Source: Christensenellales bacterium
GTDB taxonomy: Bacteria; Bacillota; Clostridia; Christensenellales; CAG-138
DNA length: 52,245 bases
Direction of reading: 5' to 3'
Assembly (NCBI GenBank): GCA_045224495.1
Contig: JBGVAK010000086.1
Location: 1 to 52,245, forward strand
The notes below the pieces were generated by a model. It was given only the letters and a program-made list of their open reading frames with translations. It was not told the DNA's origin and made no database searches. The position numbers and the translations under genes were made by a program. Shown here in pieces: positions 1 through 44,560 of this stretch (position 1 is its first letter; each line of letters opens with the position of its first letter).

Positions 1-712
1 CACGGACGTAGATGTAGCCCTGGTTCGCGTTGATGGCATAGCCCGCGATGCACATGGCTTCCAGGATGGCGTGGGGATCGCCTTCCAAGACGGAACGATC
101 CATGAACGCGCCGGGGTCGCCCTCGTCGGCGTTGCAGACCACGTACTTGTTGGGAGTCTGGTTGACCGCCGCAAACTTCCACTTGAGACCGGTGGGGAAG
201 CCGGCGCCGCCGCGGCCGCGCAGGCCGGACTTGGTGACCTCTTCGATGACCTGCTCGCGGGTCATCTCGGTCAGGACCTTGCCCAGGGCGGAATAGCCGT
301 CCATGGCGATGTACTCCTCGATGTCCTCCGGGTTGATGACGCCGCAGTTGCGGAGCGCCACACGGAGCTGGGGCTTGTAGAACTCGATGTCCTTCAGGGT
401 GGGGACCTCGACCTTCTGGCCGCCCTCGGAATCACGGTGGACCAGGCGCTCCACGATACGGCCCTTCAGGAGATGCTCGGAGGCGATCTCGGGCACATCG
501 GAGACCTTCACGCGGGAGTAGAAGGTGCCATCGGGATAGATGATCATGACGGGGCCCATTTCGCAAAGGCCGAAGCAGCCGGTGCGCACGACCTTGACTT
601 CATCCTGCAGACCCAGTTTGACGATCTCCTGCTCCATGGCTTCGGCGATCTTGGGGCTGTCAGAAGAGGTACAGCCCGTACCGCCACAGATCATTACATG
701 TGTACGAATCAT
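1..712 (-). CDS. NuoF-like NADH/FMN-binding subunit of an electron-bifurcating [FeFe]-hydrogenase (HydB-type); the C-terminal part lies beyond the window edge
   Basis: I translated the minus strand from the ATG at 712 (SD GGAGG at 722-726). It gives MIRTHVMICGGTGC...RTGCFGLCEMGP (thioredoxin-like 2Fe-2S), then GLRGRGGAGFPTGLKW and CNADEGDPGAFMDR (NuoF motifs). It is absent from the ORF track because it runs off the edge. Confidence 0.9.
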   Translation of the reverse strand, partial: MIRTHVMICGGTGCTSSDSPKIAEAMEQEIVKLGLQDEVKVVRTGCFGLCEMGPVMIIYPDGTFYSRVKVSDVPEIASEHLLKGRIVERLVHRDSEGGQKVEVPTLKDIEFYKPQLRVALRNCGVINPEDIEEYIAMDGYSALGKVLTEMTREQVIEEVTKSGLRGRGGAGFPTGLKWKFAAVNQTPNKYVVCNADEGDPGAFMDRSVLEGDPHAILEAMCIAGYAINANQGYIYVR

Positions 713-730
713 TCTCAATAACCTCCGTTA

Positions 731-1096
731 TTATTCTGCGGCACCGATGGTGTATTCGGTGATGGGCTTTCCGCCAAGGATGTGCTCCTTGACGATCCGG
801 GGGACCATGGCGGGCTTTACCTTCACGTAGGTGACCCGCTCCTTGCCGCCCTCAAAGACCTCCACGATGGGCTCGAGCCGGCACATGCCGATGCAGCCGG
901 TCTGGGTCACGGTGGCGTTGTCGGCATGCTGCTTGCTGACTTCCTCCACAAAGGCGTTGAGCACGGGCCGGGCGCCGGCGGCGATACCGCAGGTGGCCAT
1001 GCCGACGACGATGCGGATATCGCCGTCCTTCTCGCGCAGAGCGACCCTATCCTTCATTTTGTTCCGAATCGCTGCAAGTTCCTCAAGACTTTTCAT
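731..1096 (-). CDS. Thioredoxin-like [2Fe-2S] ferredoxin domain protein
   Basis: 121 aa with MATCGIAAGA and GCIGMCRLEP motifs. SD AAAGGAAA lies upstream. Same strand as the hydrogenase genes. Confidence 0.8.
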   Translation of the reverse strand: MKSLEELAAIRNKMKDRVALREKDGDIRIVVGMATCGIAAGARPVLNAFVEEVSKQHADNATVTQTGCIGMCRLEPIVEVFEGGKERVTYVKVKPAMVPRIVKEHILGGKPITEYTIGAAE

Positions 1097-1141
1097 AGTT
1101 GTTTTCCTTTCGTAGTTTTTGGTTATGTTGTAAGCTTTCGC

Positions 1142-1693
1142 CTAAAAACCGTATTGCTCGTTCAAGCTCTCTCGGGCCCATTCCAGGACCTCGAAGCTGT
1201 TGAGCGGGATCTCGTCTCCCAGAGCTTCCCTCATCTCCCGTGTGTCCAAGTGTACCGTTTCCCCGTTGGGCAGCTCATGCTCGAAGAGGAAGTCCACGTC
1301 AGGACAGCCCTGAATGAGACTGATCAAAGTGGACACCACGTCCCCCAAAGGGGTGAAATCCATGTGATCCTTATAGAAGAACGCTGAAATGACCGTTCCG
1401 TGGTCCTCCGGGCTCATCTCTATGGTTTTGGAAGAAATAGTCAGTTCGCCGCCGGTCTGCTCCGCCGCCAGTTTGAACAGGGGGATGCCCATGCCTACCT
1501 TGCGGGTCTTGCGCGTGGTGGAGAAGGGATCCATCACCGTTTTCAGGAAGTCGGGCGACATGCCCTTGCCGTCATCCTCGATGGTGATGCGCAGCGTCTT
1601 TTCCGTTTCAGCCAGCAGGATCTGGATCAAACTGGCCTTGGCGGAAACGGAGTTCTGCACGATATCCAAGATGTTCAGGGACAGTTCCTTCAT
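1142..1693 (-). CDS. GHKL-type ATP-binding protein (HATPase_c, HydD-like)
   Basis: Start taken at MKELSLNILDIVQNS (ATG 1693, ATGA overlap with the upstream stop). N-box LDIVQNS, G1 DDGKGM, G2 GMGIPL. Confidence 0.75.
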   Translation of the reverse strand: MKELSLNILDIVQNSVSAKASLIQILLAETEKTLRITIEDDGKGMSPDFLKTVMDPFSTTRKTRKVGMGIPLFKLAAEQTGGELTISSKTIEMSPEDHGTVISAFFYKDHMDFTPLGDVVSTLISLIQGCPDVDFLFEHELPNGETVHLDTREMREALGDEIPLNSFEVLEWARESLNEQYGF

Positions 1694-2409
1694 GATTTCT
1701 TCTCCAACATGGTAAAGAGGGCTTTGCGTATGGCCTCCTCCCCCGCCTCCGGATCCACGTCCAGATGTACGCAGAAGCTGCCGTCGCTGATCTCCCACAG
1801 CCGATGGGCGTCCGAAGATACCAGGATCTTCCGTCCTTCCGCCAAGTCTCGCTTGTCTTCGTCATGGACCTCCGCCAGGGTGAACACCGGTTCGTCCGGG
1901 AAGAATCCCAGCACCGCCAAGAGGCCGTTGGCTTCCCGATCGATATGGGCCGGGTAGCATACTCCACCCATGGATCGGACCAGCTTCGCCCCTTCCTCGA
2001 TGGAAAGGGAGGTGGCCGCCGGAAGGAACCAGGGATCGTTGCCCACAGGCACGTCTCCTTCGCCCATTATGATCTGCTCGCCGAAGATCTCCGGTTTGTT
2101 CTTCACCTTCATGCGCCGTTCCTCCACCAGCTTGTCGAACTGCAGAGCCGTTTCAAGCTCGGGGAACAAGCAAACCATGTGGACGTCCTCCGCCGTAGTC
2201 AGCTCCATGCCCGGCACGGGCACGATGCCGTATTCGCGGCAGGCGGCATAGAAGGCAGGACAGTTCTTCGCCGTGTTGTGATCCGTCAACGCCATGATCT
2301 TGAGTCCATTGAGATATCCCATCCCCGCGATGTTGCAGGGGGTCATATCGTCCTCTCCGCAGGGGGAAAGGCAGGAATGGATGTGCAGATCTACGGCAAA
2401 GGCGTTCAT
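1690..2409 (-). CDS. PHP-family metal-dependent phosphoesterase
   Basis: Start at MNAFAVDLHIHS (ATG 2409, ATGA overlap). HxH, TDHN, GMELT, PAHIDR and SSDAH metal-ligand pattern typical of the PHP domain. Confidence 0.8.
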   Translation of the reverse strand: MNAFAVDLHIHSCLSPCGEDDMTPCNIAGMGYLNGLKIMALTDHNTAKNCPAFYAACREYGIVPVPGMELTTAEDVHMVCLFPELETALQFDKLVEERRMKVKNKPEIFGEQIIMGEGDVPVGNDPWFLPAATSLSIEEGAKLVRSMGGVCYPAHIDREANGLLAVLGFFPDEPVFTLAEVHDEDKRDLAEGRKILVSSDAHRLWEISDGSFCVHLDVDPEAGEEAIRKALFTMLEKKS

Positions 2410-2732
2410 GAGAGCAGGGCGGCTACCTTGGCGCACAGGTCGAACACCGACAAGGGGGAACGGTAGAAGTTGAGATCGTTTTCCACCGCTGCCTCCAGCG
2501 CCGCTTCGTCCGGCGTCACGTCTTCCGCGAAGATGACCATGGCCGCGTCCGTCAGGGAACAGACGGCCGGCACGTTCCGGTTGGACATGATGGTGATCCA
2601 GCAGTCGCCGCTTTGGGCCCGGCCCATGACCCAGCTCAGCAGGTCGCCCGCGTAGCCGCCGGTGACCGGCCGATCCTCGGCCTCGTGCAGGGGTTCCAGT
2701 TTCAGCGCATCTCTGATCTCAAACACGGTCAT
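2406..2732 (-). CDS. DRTGG domain protein
   Basis: Start at MTVFEIRD (ATG 2732, ATGA overlap with the stop of the hydrogenase-like gene). Contains a literal DRPVTGG motif. Confidence 0.75.
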   Translation of the reverse strand: MTVFEIRDALKLEPLHEAEDRPVTGGYAGDLLSWVMGRAQSGDCWITIMSNRNVPAVCSLTDAAMVIFAEDVTPDEAALEAAVENDLNFYRSPLSVFDLCAKVAALLS

Positions 2733-4018
2733 GACTTCTTCTCCATTTCGCTCATCAGATTCTTCAGGTGTTCCCGCATATGGACGATGCACTCGTCGAT
2801 CTTCGCCTCCCCCTTCACCACATCCTCCGCAAAGGCGCGGCAATTGGGGGCGCCGCAGGAGCCGCAGTCCAAAGCCGGCAGGCTTTCATGGATGTTCTCG
2901 ATGTCTGCCATCATGCGGATGGACTCGAAGCGACTGCTGTTCAGGGCGGATACGTTGGCGAAGGTGGCCGGCTTCACGGTCAGGATATCCTCCGGCACGT
3001 CCACGTCCCCGATCTGACGGGGCACATGATTGAGGCTCACCGGCATGTACCGGCGCAGGGTCTGCAAACGGACCTGGGCAATGTAGGGGTTTTCCACCGT
3101 AAGGACTCCGCCCACACAGCCGCCGTTGCAGGCGTCCAGCTCAGCAAATTCCACGCTGGGGAAGTTGCCCATCTCGATGCTGTCCAACACCCGGATCACG
3201 TTCTCGATGCCGTCGGCAGCGAGATACCGATCGTTCATCAGCGCCGAGCCTTCGCCGCCGGAGGAGGCCCAGCCAAGGCCGATCATGCCAGACTCGCTGG
3301 TGATCGTTGGGGTGCCCTTGGGCTTCATGGCGTTGAGAAGCTTGAAGTATACCTCGCTGATGGATACGACGTAGTCCACGCAGGGCTCTTCGTCCTCCTT
3401 GTCCCCGTTCTTGACCCAGCTGAACTTGGCCGGACAGGGACTGATGAACACCGTCTTGATGTCCTCCTTCTTCAGCTCCGGATGCTTCCTGAGCGCCTCC
3501 TCCTTGGCCATGCGGCCGGCGAGCTCGATAGGAGGCATCAGCGGCACGATATGGTCTATGAGGGACGGGAAGCGGATGGTGATGAGACGCACCACCACCG
3601 GGCAGGCGGAGCTGATGGCCGGACGGGGGATGTCGGGCCGCTTCATGTAGCGACGGGTGTATTCCGTGATGATCTCCGCGCAGCGAGACACCTCGAACAC
3701 GTCGTTGAAGCCCATGTCGAGCAAGCCCTGGAGCACGTAGTCCACGTCGGTCACGTTGATGAACTGACCAAAGAGCGAAGGAGCCGGCAGGGCGATCAGG
3801 TACTTCGAGCGATCCAGGTCCTCCAGGCTGTCGCAGATGGCCCGCTTGGCCTTGTAGGGGCAGACCCGGATGCACTCGCCGCAGTCGATGCACTGGATGG
3901 CATTGATCACGGCATGACCGTCACGGATGCGGATAGCTTCCGTAGGGCAGCGCCGCAGACAATGGGTGCAACCCTTGCATTTATCCAGATCCAGTGAAAC
4001 GGAGTGCCTGTATTCCAT
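2729..4018 (-). CDS. Putative sensory [FeFe]-hydrogenase-like protein (HydS-type, M2e-like architecture, no PAS domain)
   Basis: 429 aa. Two ferredoxin motifs (CKGCTHCLRRCP, CIDCGECIRVCP). H-cluster-like motifs SSACP / SPCPAK / ELDACNGGCVGG. C-terminal CGSCGAPNC-x16-C (Cx2Cx4Cx16C). SD GAGGGA. Confidence 0.85.
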   Translation of the reverse strand: MEYRHSVSLDLDKCKGCTHCLRRCPTEAIRIRDGHAVINAIQCIDCGECIRVCPYKAKRAICDSLEDLDRSKYLIALPAPSLFGQFINVTDVDYVLQGLLDMGFNDVFEVSRCAEIITEYTRRYMKRPDIPRPAISSACPVVVRLITIRFPSLIDHIVPLMPPIELAGRMAKEEALRKHPELKKEDIKTVFISPCPAKFSWVKNGDKEDEEPCVDYVVSISEVYFKLLNAMKPKGTPTITSESGMIGLGWASSGGEGSALMNDRYLAADGIENVIRVLDSIEMGNFPSVEFAELDACNGGCVGGVLTVENPYIAQVRLQTLRRYMPVSLNHVPRQIGDVDVPEDILTVKPATFANVSALNSSRFESIRMMADIENIHESLPALDCGSCGAPNCRAFAEDVVKGEAKIDECIVHMREHLKNLMSEMEKKS

Positions 4019-4036
4019 GCTTCCCTCTTTCTTGTG

Positions 4037-4462
4037 TTACCTGTTCTCGAATCCCAGTTCGATGGTGGTCCCCTGACCCACGACGCTGTCGATAGCGAAG
4101 GTGTCGGAGTAGCGCTTCATGTTGGGCAAGCCCATGCCGGCGCCGAATCCCAGGGCGCGGATGTTGTCCGGCGCGGTGGAATAGCCTTCCTGCATGGCCT
4201 GCTCCACGTCCTTGATGCCGGGGCCGGTGTCCTTGAGCACGATCTTGATGGTGGTATCGTCCACGTAGATATCGGCGTCGCCGCCGTTGGCGTGGATGAC
4301 CATGTTGATCTCGCCCTCGTACATGGCGATAGAGACCCGTCGGATCGTTTCCGGAGAGCAGCCCAGCTGCCGCAAAAGCCGCTTCACCTTGACGGATGCT
4401 TCGCCTGCGGAGGTGAAGTTTCCGCCATCGACCGTATAATGTACATGCAACGGTTCGGTCAT
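4037..4462 (-). CDS. RsbW/SpoIIAB-like GHKL ATPase (putative Ser/Thr protein kinase)
   Basis: EGEINMVIHA (N-box), KDTGPGI (G1), GFGAGMGL (G2). ATG 4462 is preferred because of the SD AGGTGA. An alternative GTG at 4471 would give a GTGA overlap with the upstream stop. Confidence 0.75.
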   Translation of the reverse strand: MTEPLHVHYTVDGGNFTSAGEASVKVKRLLRQLGCSPETIRRVSIAMYEGEINMVIHANGGDADIYVDDTTIKIVLKDTGPGIKDVEQAMQEGYSTAPDNIRALGFGAGMGLPNMKRYSDTFAIDSVVGQGTTIELGFENR

Positions 4463-4467
4463 GGGGA

Positions 4468-4806
4468 TCACCTGTGCAGTCCAGCTTCGTAAAGCCTCCC
4501 GCTCGCCTCATACATGGTCATAGCGGTGGCCAGGACAGCGATGTGGCTCAGTTTTGCAAGCGACACCACTTCCTCCGCAGGCTCCTTGCCCCGGACGAAG
4601 AGGATGCAGCTCATATCAAGCATCAGCGCGGTACGCACGGCCTGGGGGTTGTTGAGCCCCGTGAGGAGCAGCGCCTGATCCTGCGCGTAGGCAAGAACGT
4701 CGCTCATCATGTCGCTGCTGAACGCGGAATCGATCTCCATGTCCAGCATCTCCTCTCCCGTATATACCTTTGCACCGACCAGGCGGGCGACTTCTTCCAA
4801 TTTCAT
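4468..4806 (-). CDS. DRTGG-family domain protein (divergent)
   Basis: 112 aa with the same size and pattern as 2406-2732 (LLLTGLNNPQAVRTA...). Sits between the NuoE-like gene and the GHKL ATPase. Confidence 0.6.
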   Translation of the reverse strand: MKLEEVARLVGAKVYTGEEMLDMEIDSAFSSDMMSDVLAYAQDQALLLTGLNNPQAVRTALMLDMSCILFVRGKEPAEEVVSLAKLSHIAVLATAMTMYEASGRLYEAGLHR

Positions 4807-4813
4807 AGGGATG

Positions 4814-5314
4814 TTACTCGGCGCGGATCTTGTCGATGATCCCCTTCACGTCGGCGGGGACCAGACGGCCATAAACCTGATCGTCGATCATCATGACCGG
4901 CGCGAGACCGCAGCAGCCCAGGCAGCGGGCGGCTTCGATGGTGAACATGCCGTCGGGGGTGGTGTGACCAGCGGTGACGCCCAGAAGCTTCACCAGCTCG
5001 TCCAGAATGTCCTGAGAACCCTTTACGTAGCAGGCAGTGCCGAGGCATACGCGGATCAGATGCTTTCCCTTCGGCTCAAGGCTGAACCAGGCGTAGAAGG
5101 TGGAAACACCATAGACCTGTTCGAGGGAGCAGCCCAGTCCCTCAGCGATCATCGTCTGCACCTCTATGGGCAGATACCCATAGATATCCTGCGCCTTCTG
5201 CATTACGGGCATCAGAGCGCCGGGCTTTCCCTTGTGATCCGCAATGACCTGTTTGAGCGCGGCTTCCTGTTCGGCCGTGCCGGTGAATGGGATCGTGGTC
5301 TTCGTACTAGTCAT
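4814..5314 (-). CDS. NuoE-like [2Fe-2S] subunit of the bifurcating hydrogenase (HydC-type)
   Basis: VCLGTACYVKG and CLGCCGLAPV motifs. Start at ATG 5314, 6 nt after SD AAGGAGG (5321-5327). The longer track ORF from 5350 has no SD. Confidence 0.9.
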   Translation of the reverse strand: MTSTKTTIPFTGTAEQEAALKQVIADHKGKPGALMPVMQKAQDIYGYLPIEVQTMIAEGLGCSLEQVYGVSTFYAWFSLEPKGKHLIRVCLGTACYVKGSQDILDELVKLLGVTAGHTTPDGMFTIEAARCLGCCGLAPVMMIDDQVYGRLVPADVKGIIDKIRAE

Positions 5315-5399
5315 ACACATCCTCCTTGTTGATTTGTTTCGGGCTTCCAAATGACATACAACAACCGCCTGTTTTGCATAGGCACATTGTTACGAACGT

Positions 5400-5428
5400 A
5401 TTTTATCACAAGATATTCGTCTTGCCAA
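5400..5428 (-). promoter_or_regulatory. Sigma-A-type promoter of the hydrogenase operon
   Basis: Minus strand reads TTGGCA (5428-5423), N17, TAAAAT (5405-5400), with a TGa extended -10. This gives a leader of roughly 80 nt before ATG 5314. Confidence 0.6.
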
Positions 5429-5432
5429 TAGA

Positions 5433-5446
5433 TTAGCAATTGCTAA
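5433..5446. promoter_or_regulatory. Perfect 14-bp palindrome TTAGCAATTGCTAA, candidate operator or activator site
   Basis: Read directly. It ends 4 nt upstream of the -35 of the hydrogenase promoter, inside the AT-rich divergent intergenic region. Confidence 0.4.
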
Positions 5447-5583
5447 CTGCTTCTTTCGTGTGGAAAATTCTATTCAAAAATTAAAATAAAAATGGAAGAA
5501 TGACAGATTTGGGGCTTTAAAAATTTCAAATTATGGAGTATACTATGTTTGTATACTATTGAAATACGGAAAGAGGTATGCAT

Positions 5584-6390
5584 ATGGCTAAGCGCAAAAA
5601 GCTGATCATCACCCGGGAGGGCTATCTGTTTTTAGCAGCGGTGGGCGTTTTGCTCCTGGCGCTCATCATCGTCGCCTTCGCGACCAAGGGGTTCGGCGCC
5701 TGCAGCGGCAATAAGGCTGTAGAAGCCTCCGCTTCGCCCGCCGCCTCTGAGTACCACCCGGCGCCCACGGCCGCGCCGACGGATACGCCTGAGCCCGTCG
5801 AGACGCCGGAGGAGGAGACGCCTGCCCCCGATACGCCCGATCCCAGCGCCACCGACACCCCCGAACCCACAGTCGTCCTCTCTGACGATCCCAACGCGCT
5901 GCTGGAGCCTACGGCGGAGATGATCGCCGGTGCGGCAGAGGGCAAGCTCACCAAGAGCGGCGTGAACATGCGCCAGGGACCCAGTACGAATACTTCGATC
6001 ATCGCCACCGGCCTTAAAAGCGGCACCAAGCTGACGGTCTATGCGGAGGACGGCGACTTCTACTTCCTGCTGGTGAACGAGACGAAGAAGTACGGCTATA
6101 TCGCCAAGAAGTTCGTAAAGCTCCTCTCCGCCCTGGGAGAGACCTCCACCGGCAGCGACCAGCCGGAGGGCACCATCAAAGGCAACATCACCTCCAGCAA
6201 CCTGGCCCTGCGGGAGGGTCCCGGCGTGACCAACAAGTCCCTGGGACAATACTACGAAGGGAAGCTGGTCTACATCTTCCATCAGGAGGGCGACTACTAC
6301 TACGTCCAGGTAGCCGGCACCGATGCCAAGGGCTATATGTCCGCCCAGTTCATCAAGCCGGAGAGCGAAGTGCCCAAGAAGGACAGCTAA
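5584..6390 (+). CDS. Membrane-anchored protein with two SH3b-like domains and a Pro/Thr/Glu-rich linker
   Basis: N-terminal TM helix, PAPTAAPTDTPEPVETPEEETPAPDTP linker, and two repeats of the G.VN.R.GPS...G....G pattern. ATG 5584 is preferred (7 nt after AAGAGG). Confidence 0.7.
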   Translation: MAKRKKLIITREGYLFLAAVGVLLLALIIVAFATKGFGACSGNKAVEASASPAASEYHPAPTAAPTDTPEPVETPEEETPAPDTPDPSATDTPEPTVVLSDDPNALLEPTAEMIAGAAEGKLTKSGVNMRQGPSTNTSIIATGLKSGTKLTVYAEDGDFYFLLVNETKKYGYIAKKFVKLLSALGETSTGSDQPEGTIKGNITSSNLALREGPGVTNKSLGQYYEGKLVYIFHQEGDYYYVQVAGTDAKGYMSAQFIKPESEVPKKDS

Positions 6391-44316: not shown

Positions 44317-44554
44317 AGTTAAATCCTCCTGTATGAAAAAGCGGCCCCGTCTCCATGCGAGGGACGGAAGACCGCGGTGCCACCCTGATTAAGCGAAAAC
44401 GCTTCACTCTTGTTCCTAACGCGAACTGCACGGCGGGCCATTTCCTGCCCGCGGCTCCCGGGTGTCCTTCCAAACGCCTTCTCCGTTCGGCTCCCACCGT
44501 CCCGAACTCGCTTGTGGATGTATCCTGCGTCTGTACTCTCCCGTTCGCAGCCTT
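44317..44554 (-). promoter_or_regulatory. T-box leader (tRNA-sensing transcription attenuator) of the hisS-aspS operon
   Basis: Minus strand shows GGGAGAGTA (S-turn element), stem III GAAGCG-tttt-CGCTT, the T-box AATCAGGGTGGCACCGCGG (44390-44372), and the terminator GCGG..CCGTC-loop-GACGG..CCGC-TTTTT (44375-44336). Confidence 0.85.
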
Positions 44555-44560
44555 TGCTGT

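Follow-up and report, generated by a model that had tools for sequence, protein, structure and literature searches.

A contig of 52,245 nucleotides from a Christensenellales bacterium (JBGVAK010000086.1), referred to below as the window, raises the question of why a bifurcating-hydrogenase operon should carry a sensory-type hydrogenase together with GHKL, DRTGG and PHP proteins, and of how a signal could be relayed among them. A sequence-only reading had described seven co-directional genes inserted between a NuoE-like and a NuoF-like gene, and the open reading frames and Pfam searches agree with this layout. On the minus strand, hydC is followed by DRTGG-1, GHKL-1 (SpoIIAB-like), HydS, DRTGG-2, PHP, GHKL-2 and a small 2Fe-2S ferredoxin, and then by hydB. 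The features, from the upstream end, are:

5432..5445, no strand: perfect 14-bp palindrome TTAGCAATTGCTAA, adjoining the -35 hexamer
5400..5428, minus strand: sigma-70-type promoter upstream of hydC, TTGGCA-17-TAAAAT with extended -10 TG (10/12 matches)
4814..5314, minus strand: hydC, NuoE-like [2Fe-2S] subunit of the bifurcating hydrogenase (PF01257 2Fe-2S_thioredx, E 3e-51)
4468..4806, minus strand: DRTGG-1, 112 aa, single-domain, partner of GHKL-1 (PF07085, E 6e-9, over the curated cut-off)
4037..4471, minus strand: GHKL-1, ~141-144 aa, SpoIIAB/RsbW-type ATP-binding protein (HATPase_c_2, E 1e-11)
2729..4018, minus strand: HydS, 429 aa, group D (M2e) putative sensory [FeFe]-hydrogenase (two Fer4 motifs; Fe_hyd_lg_C, E 2e-30; PF04060, E 2e-14)
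2406..2732, minus strand: DRTGG-2, 108 aa, divergent DRTGG paralogue, translationally coupled to HydS (hhalign against the DRTGG-1 family)
1690..2409, minus strand: PHP-family metal-dependent phosphoesterase (PF02811, E 3e-8)
1142..1693, minus strand: GHKL-2, 183 aa ATPase (HATPase_c, 8e-14; HATPase_c_3, 2e-12)
731..1096, minus strand: small thioredoxin-like [2Fe-2S] ferredoxin, HydD-type (PF01257, E 4e-5, slightly under the cut-off; NCBIfam 2Fe-2S ferredoxin models)
1..712, minus strand: 5' part of hydB, NuoF-like (Complex1_51K, 2.6e-26; N-terminal 2Fe-2S_thioredx, 7.5e-8)

Judged by its residues, HydS is almost certainly a group D/M2e [FeFe]-hydrogenase homologue that keeps all H-cluster ligands and misses the proton-relay cysteine. 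The translation contains two N-terminal [4Fe-4S] motifs (C14x2C17x2C20x3C24P and C43x2C46x2C49x3C53P), L1 (SSAC139P), L2 (SPC195PAK), L3 (ELDAC297NGGC301VGG) and a C-terminal Cx2Cx4Cx16C motif (C385x2C388x4C393x16C410), and Pfam detects no PAS domain; the ferredoxin motifs, SSACP, SPCPAK, the C-terminal motif and the missing PAS domain had all been noted from the sequence. In alignment, L1 coincides with the TS(C/A)CP motif (TSACP in the best PDB matches), which upholds Ala at the proton-relay position. Across 19 homologues, neither the four H-cluster cysteines nor K198 varies. HydS shares 43% identity with the TamHydS coding sequence and shows 42-47% full-length identity to the TamHydS-type proteins of Thermoanaerobacter (P0121/P0123) and to Athe_1292 (P0183), with the same L1-L3 and C-terminal motifs, in agreement with the earlier HydS-type assignment. 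Athe_1292, Csac_1857, Cthe_0335 and Teth39_1463 were classed as "D M2e" sensory hydrogenases, located upstream of bifurcating hydrogenases and beside kinases (Carere 2012). TamHydS is a slow, CO-tolerant hydrogenase with measurable H2 turnover, low rates and irreversible behaviour in electrochemistry, and a reported structural (conformational) change on H2. H2 does not reduce its C-terminal cluster, and this cluster affects catalysis only negligibly; according to the authors, these findings challenge earlier ideas on signal transduction (PMC13104023). The same 2026 paper gives the partners and signalling mechanism of TamHydS as unknown in the literature to April 2026, matching the earlier statement that signal transmission had not been worked out experimentally.

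Among 80 species-level Oscillospirales-type genomes, essentially every locus of sufficient length carries the full gene set, and the ten-gene set recurs in Thermoanaerobacter, Caldicellulosiruptor (C. bescii) and Coprothermobacter, the Thermoanaerobacter order differing from that of the window solely in the position of hydC. As the set is so widespread, the window holds an ordinary copy of a known cluster (described since about 2010) and not an unusual insertion. Across 80 metagenome loci, the cassette was found in several permuted orders; that of the window, with the cassette between hydC and hydB, is found at most Oscillospirales loci (about 63 of 69), which removes the oddity first attached to it. 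Five companions (DRTGG-1, GHKL-1, DRTGG-2, PHP and GHKL-2) are co-inherited with HydS across distant lineages, and the proposed check of neighbourhood conservation found the DRTGG, GHKL and PHP genes to be strictly conserved neighbours of HydS. The region is, with near certainty, the standard cassette, presumed regulatory, accompanying HydABC-type (Bfu-type, NuoE/NuoF-containing) bifurcating hydrogenases in many anaerobic bacteria.

Among the enzyme genes, hydC matches the NCBIfam NuoE equivalog model at its cut-off and has orthologues in 69 related loci. The hydB gene runs past the window edge, and the part inside covers the N-terminal 2Fe-2S domain and the beginning of the FMN domain; hydA lies outside the window, and a HydA-type gene comes after hydB in the orthologous loci L001 and L002. 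The HydD-type ferredoxin gene, which precedes hydB in 70 related loci and is also found at loci with HydS-less cassettes, belongs to the enzyme block, not to the cassette. HydS-containing cassettes adjoin HydA in 60 of 67 cases, an association uncorrected for phylogeny, with exceptions (L091, L162, L119 and L149) that adjoin NuoF-GltD or FdhA-type genes. HydS-less cassettes (about 20 loci) were never seen adjoining HydA; at the seven loci with an identifiable enzyme partner, this is NuoE plus NuoF-GltD or FdhA (formate-dehydrogenase)-type genes, and a receiver domain follows two HydS-less cassettes. No NuoEF gene adjoins the cassette at L084 and L143, nor at L094, L121 and L123 (within 4-5 kb).

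The whole cluster constitutes one operon, with hydC first. The three ATGA stop/start overlaps (2729-2732, 2406-2409 and 1690-1693) and the strong upstream promoter reported earlier are present, and a GTGA overlap at 4468-4471 can be added, provided that GTG is the start of GHKL-1 (4471, or else ATG at 4462, with the end at 4037). The promoter is the sole strong minus-strand site upstream of the cluster, and no minus-strand terminator was found within positions 1-5700. The palindrome TTAGCAATTGCTAA is a candidate operator of some regulator; beyond the window it is retained by L001 and L002 alone, the two closest relatives, with 1-2 mismatches and at an equal distance from the gene. Upstream of related clusters, Rex-like boxes occur at 22 of 72 loci where about 1 would be expected, and this enrichment indicates that transcription of the operon is regulated. 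Searches of all nine products with Pfam and NCBIfam revealed no sigma factor, receiver or DNA-binding domain, as previously read from the sequence, and the cluster has no output regulator in cis. The three distant genomes (Thermoanaerobacter, C. bescii and Coprothermobacter) share no conserved upstream regulator, the gene upstream of the Thermoanaerobacter cassette (L081) having no Pfam domain.

The two GHKL, two DRTGG and PHP neighbours were recovered with Pfam, with the exception of DRTGG-2, which required profile-profile comparison. GHKL-1 matches the NCBIfam spIIAB model (4e-17, under its cut-off), and the best PDB matches of its family profile are SpoIIAB (1TIL, 1L0O and 1TH8; E 7.5e-12, full length) and RsbW (6M36; 1.7e-4). 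With its intact ATP motifs (N-box E49/E51/N53, D78xGxG82 and GFGAGMGLPN, all invariant), it is a putative Ser/Thr kinase or binding switch. The RsbW/SpoIIAB likeness suggested earlier for one GHKL protein is true of GHKL-1 only. GHKL-2 consists of a Bergerat fold (residues 1-107) and a small C-terminal alpha/beta subdomain, with no DHp or His-acceptor domain, and histidine-kinase catalytic domains match it over residues 8-105 only. The best whole-chain Foldseek matches of its AF2 model (pLDDT 85.5) are the MutL/PMS2 N-terminal ATPase, Hsp90 and TopoVI-B, and the protein as a whole appears closer to MutL/PMS2/Hsp90 ATPase modules than to kinases.

DRTGG-1 is predicted (AF2, pLDDT 96.4) to adopt the DRTGG/HprK-N fold of regulatory DRTGG and HprK-N domains, with Foldseek TM scores of 0.84 to the AF1212 DRTGG domain, 0.77 to the CBS-PPase DRTGG domain and 0.68 to the HprK/P N-domain, and no STAS protein among the top 50 structural matches. 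The 108-aa DRTGG-2 has no Pfam or NCBIfam match; hhalign relates it to the DRTGG-1 family over 105 columns (98.3% probability, E 2.4e-14), weak PDB profile matches are 3L2B and 2IOJ, and its orthologues in C. bescii match the Pfam DRTGG model, those in Thermoanaerobacter weakly. Both paralogues have a D-x-[ML]-S motif (D32 invariant and S35 nearly so in DRTGG-1; D30 and S33 invariant in DRTGG-2), whose Ser sits at a helix N-cap in the AF2 model. A helix N-cap Ser is the sort of site that is phosphorylated in SpoIIAA. The metal-ligand positions of PHP (H9, H11, D43/H44, E69, H77, H155 and D200/H202) show no variation among 25 orthologues. A PP2C or CpsB-type protein phosphatase was considered and set aside, the closest solved relatives being EndoQ, RNase AM, TM0559 and pAp phosphatases; as these act on nucleotides or nucleic acids, PHP may not be a protein phosphatase.

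Gene fusions and stop/start overlaps define three units: DRTGG-1 with GHKL-1, HydS with DRTGG-2, and PHP with GHKL-2. The first pair is fused at six loci, and also in proteins P0259 and P0315 (cluster representatives with <50% mutual identity), through an in-frame linker of ~25 aa. The HydS::DRTGG-2 (L087) and PHP::GHKL-2 (L150) fusions are single, linker-free metagenomic cases, both of which a one-base assembly error at a stop/start overlap would yield.

The best explanation overall, and a somewhat probable one, is a HydABC regulatory cassette in which the HydS signal is relayed through the DRTGG and GHKL proteins. The chain is put forward as a hypothesis, and we infer every step past H-cluster binding by HydS. 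HydS would change conformation, as reported for TamHydS, and in this way signal H2 or the local redox state, and DRTGG-2 would serve as its output adaptor, filling the role of the PAS domain in group C HydS. DRTGG-2 would touch DRTGG-1, probably by DRTGG-DRTGG dimerisation, and this contact could switch the state of GHKL-1, either through ATP-dependent Ser/Thr phosphorylation or by target sequestration, while the PHP and GHKL-2 unit may reset or modulate the signal. Because the cassette goes with the NuoE/NuoF core and has no conserved DNA-binding neighbour in cis, control would most likely be post-translational and act on the enzyme complex or on a factor whose gene lies elsewhere. The MutL/Hsp90-like GHKL-2 has no clear role in this mechanism.

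The sequence-only reading had proposed partner switching, with two kinase/substrate pairs (GHKL-1 phosphorylating DRTGG-1, GHKL-2 phosphorylating DRTGG-2), PHP serving both pairs as phosphatase, and HydS biasing the balance through the H2 that it senses. This is considered unlikely. The SpoIIAB/RsbW likeness of GHKL-1 stands, the N-cap Ser is conserved in both DRTGG paralogues, the PHP active site is intact, and a Ser/Thr kinase and a phosphatase occur together in group C HydS systems (PMC5707799, PMC11837493). Nevertheless, most of the defining features fail: the DRTGG fold is not STAS, PHP is not PP2C and lies closest to nucleases and nucleotide phosphatases, GHKL-2 has no acceptor domain and resembles MutL/PMS2/Hsp90, and the cluster contains no sigma factor or other switch target. 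Moreover, the fusion partner of DRTGG-2 is HydS and not GHKL-2, which is fused to PHP, and a covalent DRTGG-1-GHKL-1 link suits a regulatory domain more than a diffusible substrate.

It is also unlikely that the cassette performs no signalling and instead assembles, repairs or reductively activates the flavin/iron-sulfur core of NuoE/NuoF (Bfu) at the expense of ATP. The GHKLs would then be chaperone-like ATPases, PHP would act on nucleotides or cofactors as a phosphoesterase, and HydS would be a hydrogenase supplying electrons from H2 at a low rate. Such a role would fit the tracking of NuoE/NuoF genes whatever the catalytic subunit (HydA, FdhA-type or NuoF-GltD), the MutL/Hsp90 likeness of GHKL-2, the place of PHP among nucleotide phosphoesterases, the lack of an encoded transcriptional output and the slow turnover of TamHydS. 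However, GHKL-1 belongs specifically to a regulatory family, DRTGG domains in solved proteins have regulatory functions, in the CBS-PPase regulatory region and as the HprK/P N-domain, and the receiver domain that ends two HydS-less cassettes is a signalling element. Several characterised HydABC enzymes (e.g., those of Thermotoga and Acetobacterium) are not known to be accompanied by the full cassette, and cassette proteins are not known from purified HydABC(D) preparations.

Control in trans, with GHKL-1 as an anti-sigma factor or anti-regulator of a transcription factor encoded elsewhere, held or released according to HydS and the DRTGGs, is improbable. The nearest relatives of GHKL-1 (anti-sigma F factor SpoIIAB, and RsbW), the AraC-type regulator reported to flank the TamHydS gene, the palindrome beside the -35 hexamer and the enriched Rex-like boxes are consistent with it, but Rex regulation does not need the cassette, and no conserved sigma-factor or DNA-binding gene lies beside the cassette in any lineage examined, the gene upstream of it at L081 having no Pfam domain. 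The cassette also occurs in a diderm-type neighbourhood (L084). Diderm lineages are unlikely to possess sigma F or sigma B-type partners.

Finally, that HydS is a second catalytic subunit using HydB and HydC, among unrelated passenger genes, is highly improbable: its retained H-cluster cysteines and Lys198 and the measurable turnover of TamHydS would allow it, but it has Ala at the proton-relay position, it has neither the NuoG-like N-terminal 2Fe-2S domains of HydA nor the small-subunit-like C-terminus of the HydA genes in L081-L083, TamHydS is slow and electrochemically irreversible, and the supposed passengers are co-inherited and fused to each other and to HydS.

The cluster lies on the minus strand of 1-5446, where its genes are closely packed in one row. 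Genes were read from the open reading frames and the sequence, and their domains were taken from Pfam and NCBIfam scans.

Genes of the HydS/HydABC cluster in the window, in order of transcription
5314-4814, minus strand: hydC (NuoE-like); PF01257, E 3e-51
4806-4468, minus strand: DRTGG-1; PF07085, E 6e-9 (36.1 bits, cut-off 25.2)
4471/4462-4037, minus strand: GHKL-1; HATPase_c_2, E 1e-11
4018-2729, minus strand: HydS, 429 aa; Fe_hyd_lg_C, E 2e-30
2732-2406, minus strand: DRTGG-2, 108-aa ORF; no Pfam match
2409-1690, minus strand: PHP phosphoesterase; PF02811, E 3e-8 (34.5 bits, cut-off 26.4)
1693-1142, minus strand: GHKL-2; HATPase_c, E 8e-14
1096-731, minus strand: small 2Fe-2S ferredoxin; PF01257, E 4e-5, under the cut-off
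712-1, minus strand: 5' end of hydB (NuoF-like); Complex1_51K, E 2.6e-26

Nine genes of the ten-gene HydS/HydABC set are present; the tenth, hydA, falls past the window edge, and comes after hydB in L001 and L002, the nearest relatives. All three ATGA overlaps of stop and start codons claimed in the sequence-only reading were found in the sequence. A possible GTGA overlap joins DRTGG-1 to GHKL-1, and the other intergenic gaps in the cluster measure 7-45 bp. The promoter claimed upstream of the cluster was likewise recovered (TTGGCA-17-TAAAAT with a TG extension, 5428-5400), and no terminator was found downstream of it on the minus strand.

The same reading had described genes inserted between hydC and hydB; comparison showed that this neighbourhood is the rule in relatives. 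Relatives were scanned with one genome per species, and the best 80 of at least 593 were kept (L001-L080), all of them Oscillospirales-type and many of rumen or gut origin. In tblastn searches with the nine proteins of the window, its gene order and content recurred in essentially all loci of sufficient length. In six loci (L011, L014, L019, L022, L028, and L052), hydC lies between the PHP and GHKL-2 genes, which is exactly the order of Thermoanaerobacter, C. bescii, and Coprothermobacter (L081-L083). Metagenome loci display a third order, PHP-GHKL-2-hydC-ferredoxin-hydB, as well as divergent two-operon versions and circular permutations. The content of the cluster is constant, and hydC is its movable piece. 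The DRTGG, GHKL, and PHP genes are indeed conserved neighbours of this hydrogenase class, the same strictly co-inherited set being found in L001-L080 and L081-L083. Publications from 2010-2012 onwards connect M2e hydrogenases with kinases and bifurcating hydrogenases, and the window cluster is a typical copy of a known, very common cluster, with nothing unusual by itself.

One locus has a different setting. In L061, a HydS homologue (57-1382, 56% identity) stands at the contig start, followed by an unrelated ORF of 133 aa whose N-terminal part includes a hydrophobic stretch and which was considered as a DRTGG protein and rejected; opposite-strand genes for DUF4867, a fumarase C-terminal domain, DivIVA, and Obg come next. 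No DRTGG-2, PHP, or HydABC genes were found in this locus, the sole such case among the best 80 of at least 593 relatives.

All the motifs quoted earlier for the 429-aa protein are present in its translation. When HydS was aligned by HMMER with hydrogenase chains of Desulfovibrio, SSACP fell on TS(C/A)CP (the top-scoring chains have TSACP), SPCPAK on MPCxAK, and ELDACNGGCVGG on EYMACPGGCVCG. C139, C195, C297, C301, and K198 are invariant among 19 homologues. The proton-relay cysteine (CpI C299) is absent, the window HydS reading SSACP and 19/19 aligned homologues [SN][ST]ACP; non-conservation of this L1 cysteine is a group D criterion (PMC8163306). Fer4 families match residues 7-57 and PF04060 residues 380-411. 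Pfam gave no match to a PAS domain in HydS, which stops 19 residues past C410. An architecture identical to that of HydS occurs in more than 8000 sequence clusters.

The class of HydS was assessed against TamHydS, the HydS of Thermoanaerobacter mathranii, among others. The supplement of PMC13104023 supplied the TamHydS coding sequence, which, owing to OCR frameshifts, was compared by tblastn; these frameshifts notwithstanding, it shares 43% identity with the window HydS over 310 residues. A hand-repaired translation served solely to retrieve true database proteins, which came from Thermoanaerobacter, Thermoanaerobacterium, Caldanaerobius, Coprothermobacter, Caldicoprobacter, a Peptococcaceae bacterium, and Caldicellulosiruptor bescii. 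These TamHydS-type proteins and Athe_1292 display 42-47% full-length identity to the window HydS (E 1e-120 to 1e-134) and share with it the motifs ISSACP (in most), I(S/T)PCxAK, ACxGGCxGG, and CGxCGxPxC-x16-C. The C. bescii HydS gene sits seven genes ahead of hydA and would be Athe_1292 if hydA is Athe_1299; Athe_1292 was given as a "D M2e" sensory hydrogenase by Carere et al. (2012). PDB group A enzymes yielded only partial matches (E ~1e-21), HydS scored far under the cut-offs of the NCBIfam models for groups A and B1, and a PDB search returned no solved structure of a close relative. At the sequence level, the proposed group D (M2e) HydS-type assignment is well supported, since a comparison with group D proteins, group A structures, and group A/B1 models placed HydS nearer to the characterised members of group D than to either group A or group B.

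The named group D members (TamHydS, Athe_1292, Csac_1857, Cthe_0335, and Teth39_1463) resemble the window HydS in length, in the two [4Fe-4S] motifs, the H-domain, the C-terminal Cx2Cx4Cx16C motif, and the lack of a PAS domain. They also share an L1 of the form (I/S)SSACP, in which Ala occupies the proton-relay position, an L2 of the form ISPCxAK, the identical numbering of C20, R30, R32, and K58, and the same neighbours and HydABC link. However, hydC lies upstream of the cassette in the window and between PHP and GHKL-2 in the group D relatives, and, unlike in the group D comparison system, no AraC-type gene is found near the window cluster. Within group D, H-cluster binding and a slow, sensor-like reaction with H2 are known only for TamHydS (PMC8163306, PMC13104023), the only characterised enzyme of the group, whose partner is not known (PMC13104023, 2026). 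The C1 subtype is named "histidine kinase-linked (putative)" in HydDB, with an undetermined role. At residue 295 (DNA about 3134-3136), the counterpart of Met497 in CpI, a position framing the diiron site, the window HydS has Asp and most close relatives Asn, whereas TamHydS and its thermophilic relatives have Leu; the H-clusters of the two subclades may be tuned differently.

The identity of the companion proteins, like that of HydS, is very probably right. The GHKL-1 family profile matches SpoIIAB over the full length (E 7.5e-12), followed by RsbW (E 1.7e-4), and its ATP-binding boxes (N, G1, and G2) are invariant. As GHKL-1 reaches 62 bits against the NCBIfam spIIAB model, under the 135-bit equivalog cut-off, it is a relative of SpoIIAB and not an orthologue.

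Structure predictions, which used alignments of database proteins, gave a very high confidence AF2 model for DRTGG-1 (pLDDT 96.4). This model superposes on AF1212 (2IOJ, TM 0.84), the DRTGG domain of a CBS-pyrophosphatase (0.77), and the N-domain of HPr kinase (0.68). It matches DRTGG, HprK-N, and MurE-N folds, and its top 50 structural matches include no STAS protein. DRTGG-2 has no match in either Pfam or NCBIfam, but its 61-orthologue alignment matches the DRTGG-1 family in hhalign (98.3% probability, E 2.4e-14, 105 columns), and it is through this homology that the earlier count of two DRTGG proteins proved right. Both paralogues keep a D-x-[ML]-S motif, the Ser of which caps helix 34-40 in the model. 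The DRTGG-1 fold is thus that of the DRTGG domains of CBS-pyrophosphatases (3L2B, 3L31), AF1212, and the HPr kinase/phosphatase N-domain (1KO7), which are regulatory or oligomerisation appendages of enzymes. Unlike these, the DRTGG proteins of the window are free-standing, form a paralogous pair, and carry a subfamily-specific motif; by analogy, natural fusions of DRTGG-1 to GHKL-1 and of HydS to DRTGG-2 suggest that they may play a similar appendage role.

The metal ligands of the PHP protein (H9, H11, D43, H44, E69, H77, H155, D200, and H202) are invariant. Its nearest solved relatives in a PDB profile search are only EndoQ, RNase AM, TM0559, and pAp phosphatases, and its best NCBIfam matches are the CehA/McbA, TrlF, and nucleoside-bisphosphate phosphatase models. 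With no protein phosphatases among the solved relatives, a CpsB/YwqE-like protein-tyrosine phosphatase was ruled out as its nearest kin. In GHKL-2, histidine-kinase catalytic domains cover only residues 8-105, and neither a DHp domain nor an invariant His in the C-terminal half was found. At the sequence level, its Bergerat fold scores best against these kinase domains, with a Pfam HATPase_c_3 match in addition. The AF2 model (pLDDT 85.5) is best aligned over the whole chain, Bergerat fold and C-terminal alpha/beta subdomain together, with Hsp90, TopoVI-B, and the N-terminal ATPase fragments of MutL/PMS2. The MutL/PMS2 fragments align over 175-196 columns (query-normalised TM 0.50-0.59), compared with about 100 columns, the Bergerat fold only, for kinases. 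Nevertheless, GHKL-2 (183 aa) is far smaller than these GHL proteins, and the TM-scores are modest.

These identities bear on how the cassette was first understood. Of the proposed partner-switching logic, the RsbW-type protein stands, namely GHKL-1, which resembles the corresponding members of SpoIIAB-SpoIIAA-SpoIIE and RsbW-RsbV-RsbU in being a single SpoIIAB/RsbW-matching domain of about 140 aa. The remaining defining features do not: no STAS domain was matched by Pfam or NCBIfam among the nine cluster products, the DRTGG fold standing in place of a STAS antagonist, the sole phosphoesterase of the cluster is of the PHP family and not PP2C-type, and there is no sigma factor or other target. 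A partner-switching reading of the cassette is, therefore, only weakly supported. A two-component system was rejected, with GHKL-2 lacking a DHp domain and the window lacking a receiver. The absence of an output regulator noted earlier extends to other genomes, as a sigma factor or DNA-binding domain is neither present in the cluster nor conserved beside it in L081-L083. How the signal is transmitted is a genuine open question, acknowledged in the field (PMC13104023).

Two other sensory systems offer partial parallels. Group C (M2f) HydS/HfsB proteins, found in Thermotoga maritima, Ruminococcus albus, and Thermoanaerobacterium (hfsABCD), are also sensor-type [FeFe]-hydrogenases without the proton-relay Cys and with an extra C-terminal [4Fe-4S] motif; their genes are accompanied by those of a Ser/Thr kinase, a phosphatase, or both, and they are tied to the hydrogenases that they presumably control. 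However, group C has a fused PAS domain and, as described in the hfs literature, a Ser/Thr kinase encoded next to it and HfsC, a homologue of serine phosphatases, whereas the window has two DRTGG proteins, a PHP phosphoesterase, a second GHKL ATPase, and no PAS domain. In Ralstonia eutropha, the regulatory [NiFe]-hydrogenase HoxBC, the HoxJ kinase, and the HoxA regulator control hydrogenase genes (PMC5707799). The concept is alike, with a catalytically poor hydrogenase as the H2 sensor and an ATP-binding kinase-type protein, but neither the metal site nor the protein families are related. HoxJ belongs to the canonical histidine kinases and carries a PAS-like domain, HoxA is a DNA-binding response regulator, and neither has a counterpart in the window cluster.

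Natural fusions indicate how the parts may be paired. A DRTGG-1 search of 1.84 billion representative proteins returned 1395 relatives, including two database proteins (P0259 and P0315) in which DRTGG-1 is fused to GHKL-1 through an in-frame linker of about 25 residues. This fusion occurs in six cases across the loci analysed, and DRTGG-1 and GHKL-1 are thereby linked. HydS::DRTGG-2 (L087, 2222-3829, 535 aa) and PHP::GHKL-2 (L150, 2268-3578) were each found once as in-frame fusions and, being single cases without a linker, may be assembly artefacts arising from a one-base error. Together with the overlapping stop/start codons of the window, the fusions suggest three units, namely DRTGG-1 with GHKL-1, HydS with DRTGG-2, and PHP with GHKL-2. 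The comparison, thus, names testable partners: DRTGG-2 for HydS, DRTGG-1 for GHKL-1, and PHP for GHKL-2. Two further loci contain a permuted minimal version, DRTGG-2 - DRTGG-1(::)GHKL-1 - HydS - hydC - hydB (L119, 6947-10376; L145, 6452-9423). Neither PHP nor GHKL-2 was detected within these two loci, so the unit that they form may be dispensable.

HydS-less versions of the cassette also exist, in about 20 loci from metagenomes or genomes, where the genes are arranged as DRTGG-1, GHKL-1, DRTGG-2, PHP, GHKL-2. Where the neighbouring enzyme is identifiable, it is never HydA: NuoE with a NuoF-GltD fusion (Nfn-Bfu-like) was found in five loci, an FdhA-type enzyme in one, and both in one. In contrast, HydS-containing cassettes adjoin HydA in 60/67 informative loci (adjacency-based classification; Fisher p ~2e-6, phylogeny ignored), with exceptions in L091, L162, L119, and L149, where they stand beside NuoF-GltD or FdhA-type genes. 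Examples of enzyme genes beside HydS-less cassettes are found in L152 (10470-13535), L155 (13809-15158), and L106 (7939-8997). In these, the NuoF-like gene encodes a 1021-aa Nfn-Bfu-like fusion of NuoF, Fer4_20, and Pyr_redox_2, or the next gene encodes an FdhA-type molybdopterin enzyme, and no HydA was found. In a few cases, the cassette has no NuoEF gene in its vicinity. The divergent HydS-less cassettes of L084 (8001-10822) and L101 (7001-9843) are the only ones with a stand-alone response-regulator receiver domain directly after GHKL-2; its gene overlaps the GHKL-2 end in L101, and the L084 cassette is set among LPS-type glycosyltransferase genes. Judging from the gene content of HydS-less loci, the cassette can apparently work without a hydrogenase sensor, and its distribution suggests that its service is to the NuoE/NuoF core in several kinds of bifurcating enzyme, hydrogenases not being the only ones.

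A mechanistic chain from HydS through DRTGG-2 to DRTGG-1 and GHKL-1, and on to a target, is the likeliest of the readings considered, though it should be held with reserve. HydS would sense H2 or the redox state, and DRTGG-2 would be its output adaptor, the counterpart of the group C PAS domain, signalling to DRTGG-1 and GHKL-1, probably by DRTGG-DRTGG contacts. GHKL-1 would then phosphorylate or sequester the target, and PHP and GHKL-2 would reset or modulate the signal. Since the cassette follows the NuoE/NuoF core and lacks a DNA-binding output conserved in cis, the target would most likely be the enzyme complex itself or a factor encoded elsewhere. Regulatory regions with a DRTGG domain respond to NADH in phosphotransacetylase and to adenine nucleotides in CBS-pyrophosphatases, so the DRTGG proteins might themselves contribute a nucleotide or redox signal.

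Several less likely rivals have to be weighed against this chain. The model of the sequence-only reading, a duplicated kinase/substrate pair plus a phosphatase, can draw on the SpoIIAB/RsbW kinship of GHKL-1 and the conserved Ser of both DRTGG paralogues, while the non-STAS fold of DRTGG-1, the kinship of PHP and GHKL-2, and the fusions point elsewhere. The cassette might instead have a role in assembly or activation of the enzymes that it adjoins. Anti-sigma-type action in trans would suit the SpoIIAB relationship of GHKL-1, against the lack of a sigma factor or DNA-binding gene conserved beside the cassette. HydS as a plain catalytic subunit has the H-cluster motifs on its side and the missing proton-relay cysteine against it, and is the weakest of these.

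Beyond the signalling chain itself, a broader and about equally tentative proposal is that the five non-hydrogenase proteins might constitute an undescribed, self-contained cassette that regulates NuoE/NuoF-based (Bfu-type) bifurcating enzymes, HydS being an optional H2-sensing input connected via its own DRTGG adaptor. Its action would be post-translational, on the enzyme or on a partner, and not by way of a DNA-binding regulator. No relevant literature tying DRTGG or PHP to hydrogenases was found, nor any mention of the cassette in Bfu-family papers. If the proposal is true, group D sensors have their missing "PAS-equivalent" in the two DRTGG proteins, and bifurcating complexes of the formate-dehydrogenase and Nfn types are controlled by the same device. 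In fermentative gut, rumen, and thermophilic communities, it is the electron-bifurcating hydrogenases that determine the H2 balance, which feeds into methane emissions and biofuel yields, and H2 sensing by such bacteria is an acknowledged open question.

Some signals around the operon and elsewhere in the window deserve mention. The sole Rfam match across the 52-kb window is a T-box leader (RF00230) at 44357-44557 on the minus strand (105.7 bits, E 2e-22), and no riboswitch, leader RNA, or other known RNA element was found in the 5' UTR of the operon. Rex-like boxes (TTGTKAA-N4-TTMACAA) were searched in the 270 bp before the first cluster gene of L001-L083. At up to 2 mismatches, they occur upstream of the cluster in 22/72 related loci, compared with 1.0 +/- 1.1 in shuffles, and at up to 1 mismatch, 4 were observed versus 0.05 in shuffles; the promoter of the window has no Rex operator within 2 mismatches. 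Divergent from the operon, 5578-6390 (plus strand) encodes a 270-aa protein with a hydrophobic segment at its N-terminus, a linker rich in Pro, Thr, and Glu, and a pair of repeats resembling SH3 by eye. Beside the -35 hexamer of the operon promoter lies a perfect 14-bp palindrome, TTAGCAATTGCTAA, at 5432-5445, kept with 1-2 mismatches and at an equal distance only in the closest relatives, L001 and L002; it may be a candidate operator for some regulator.
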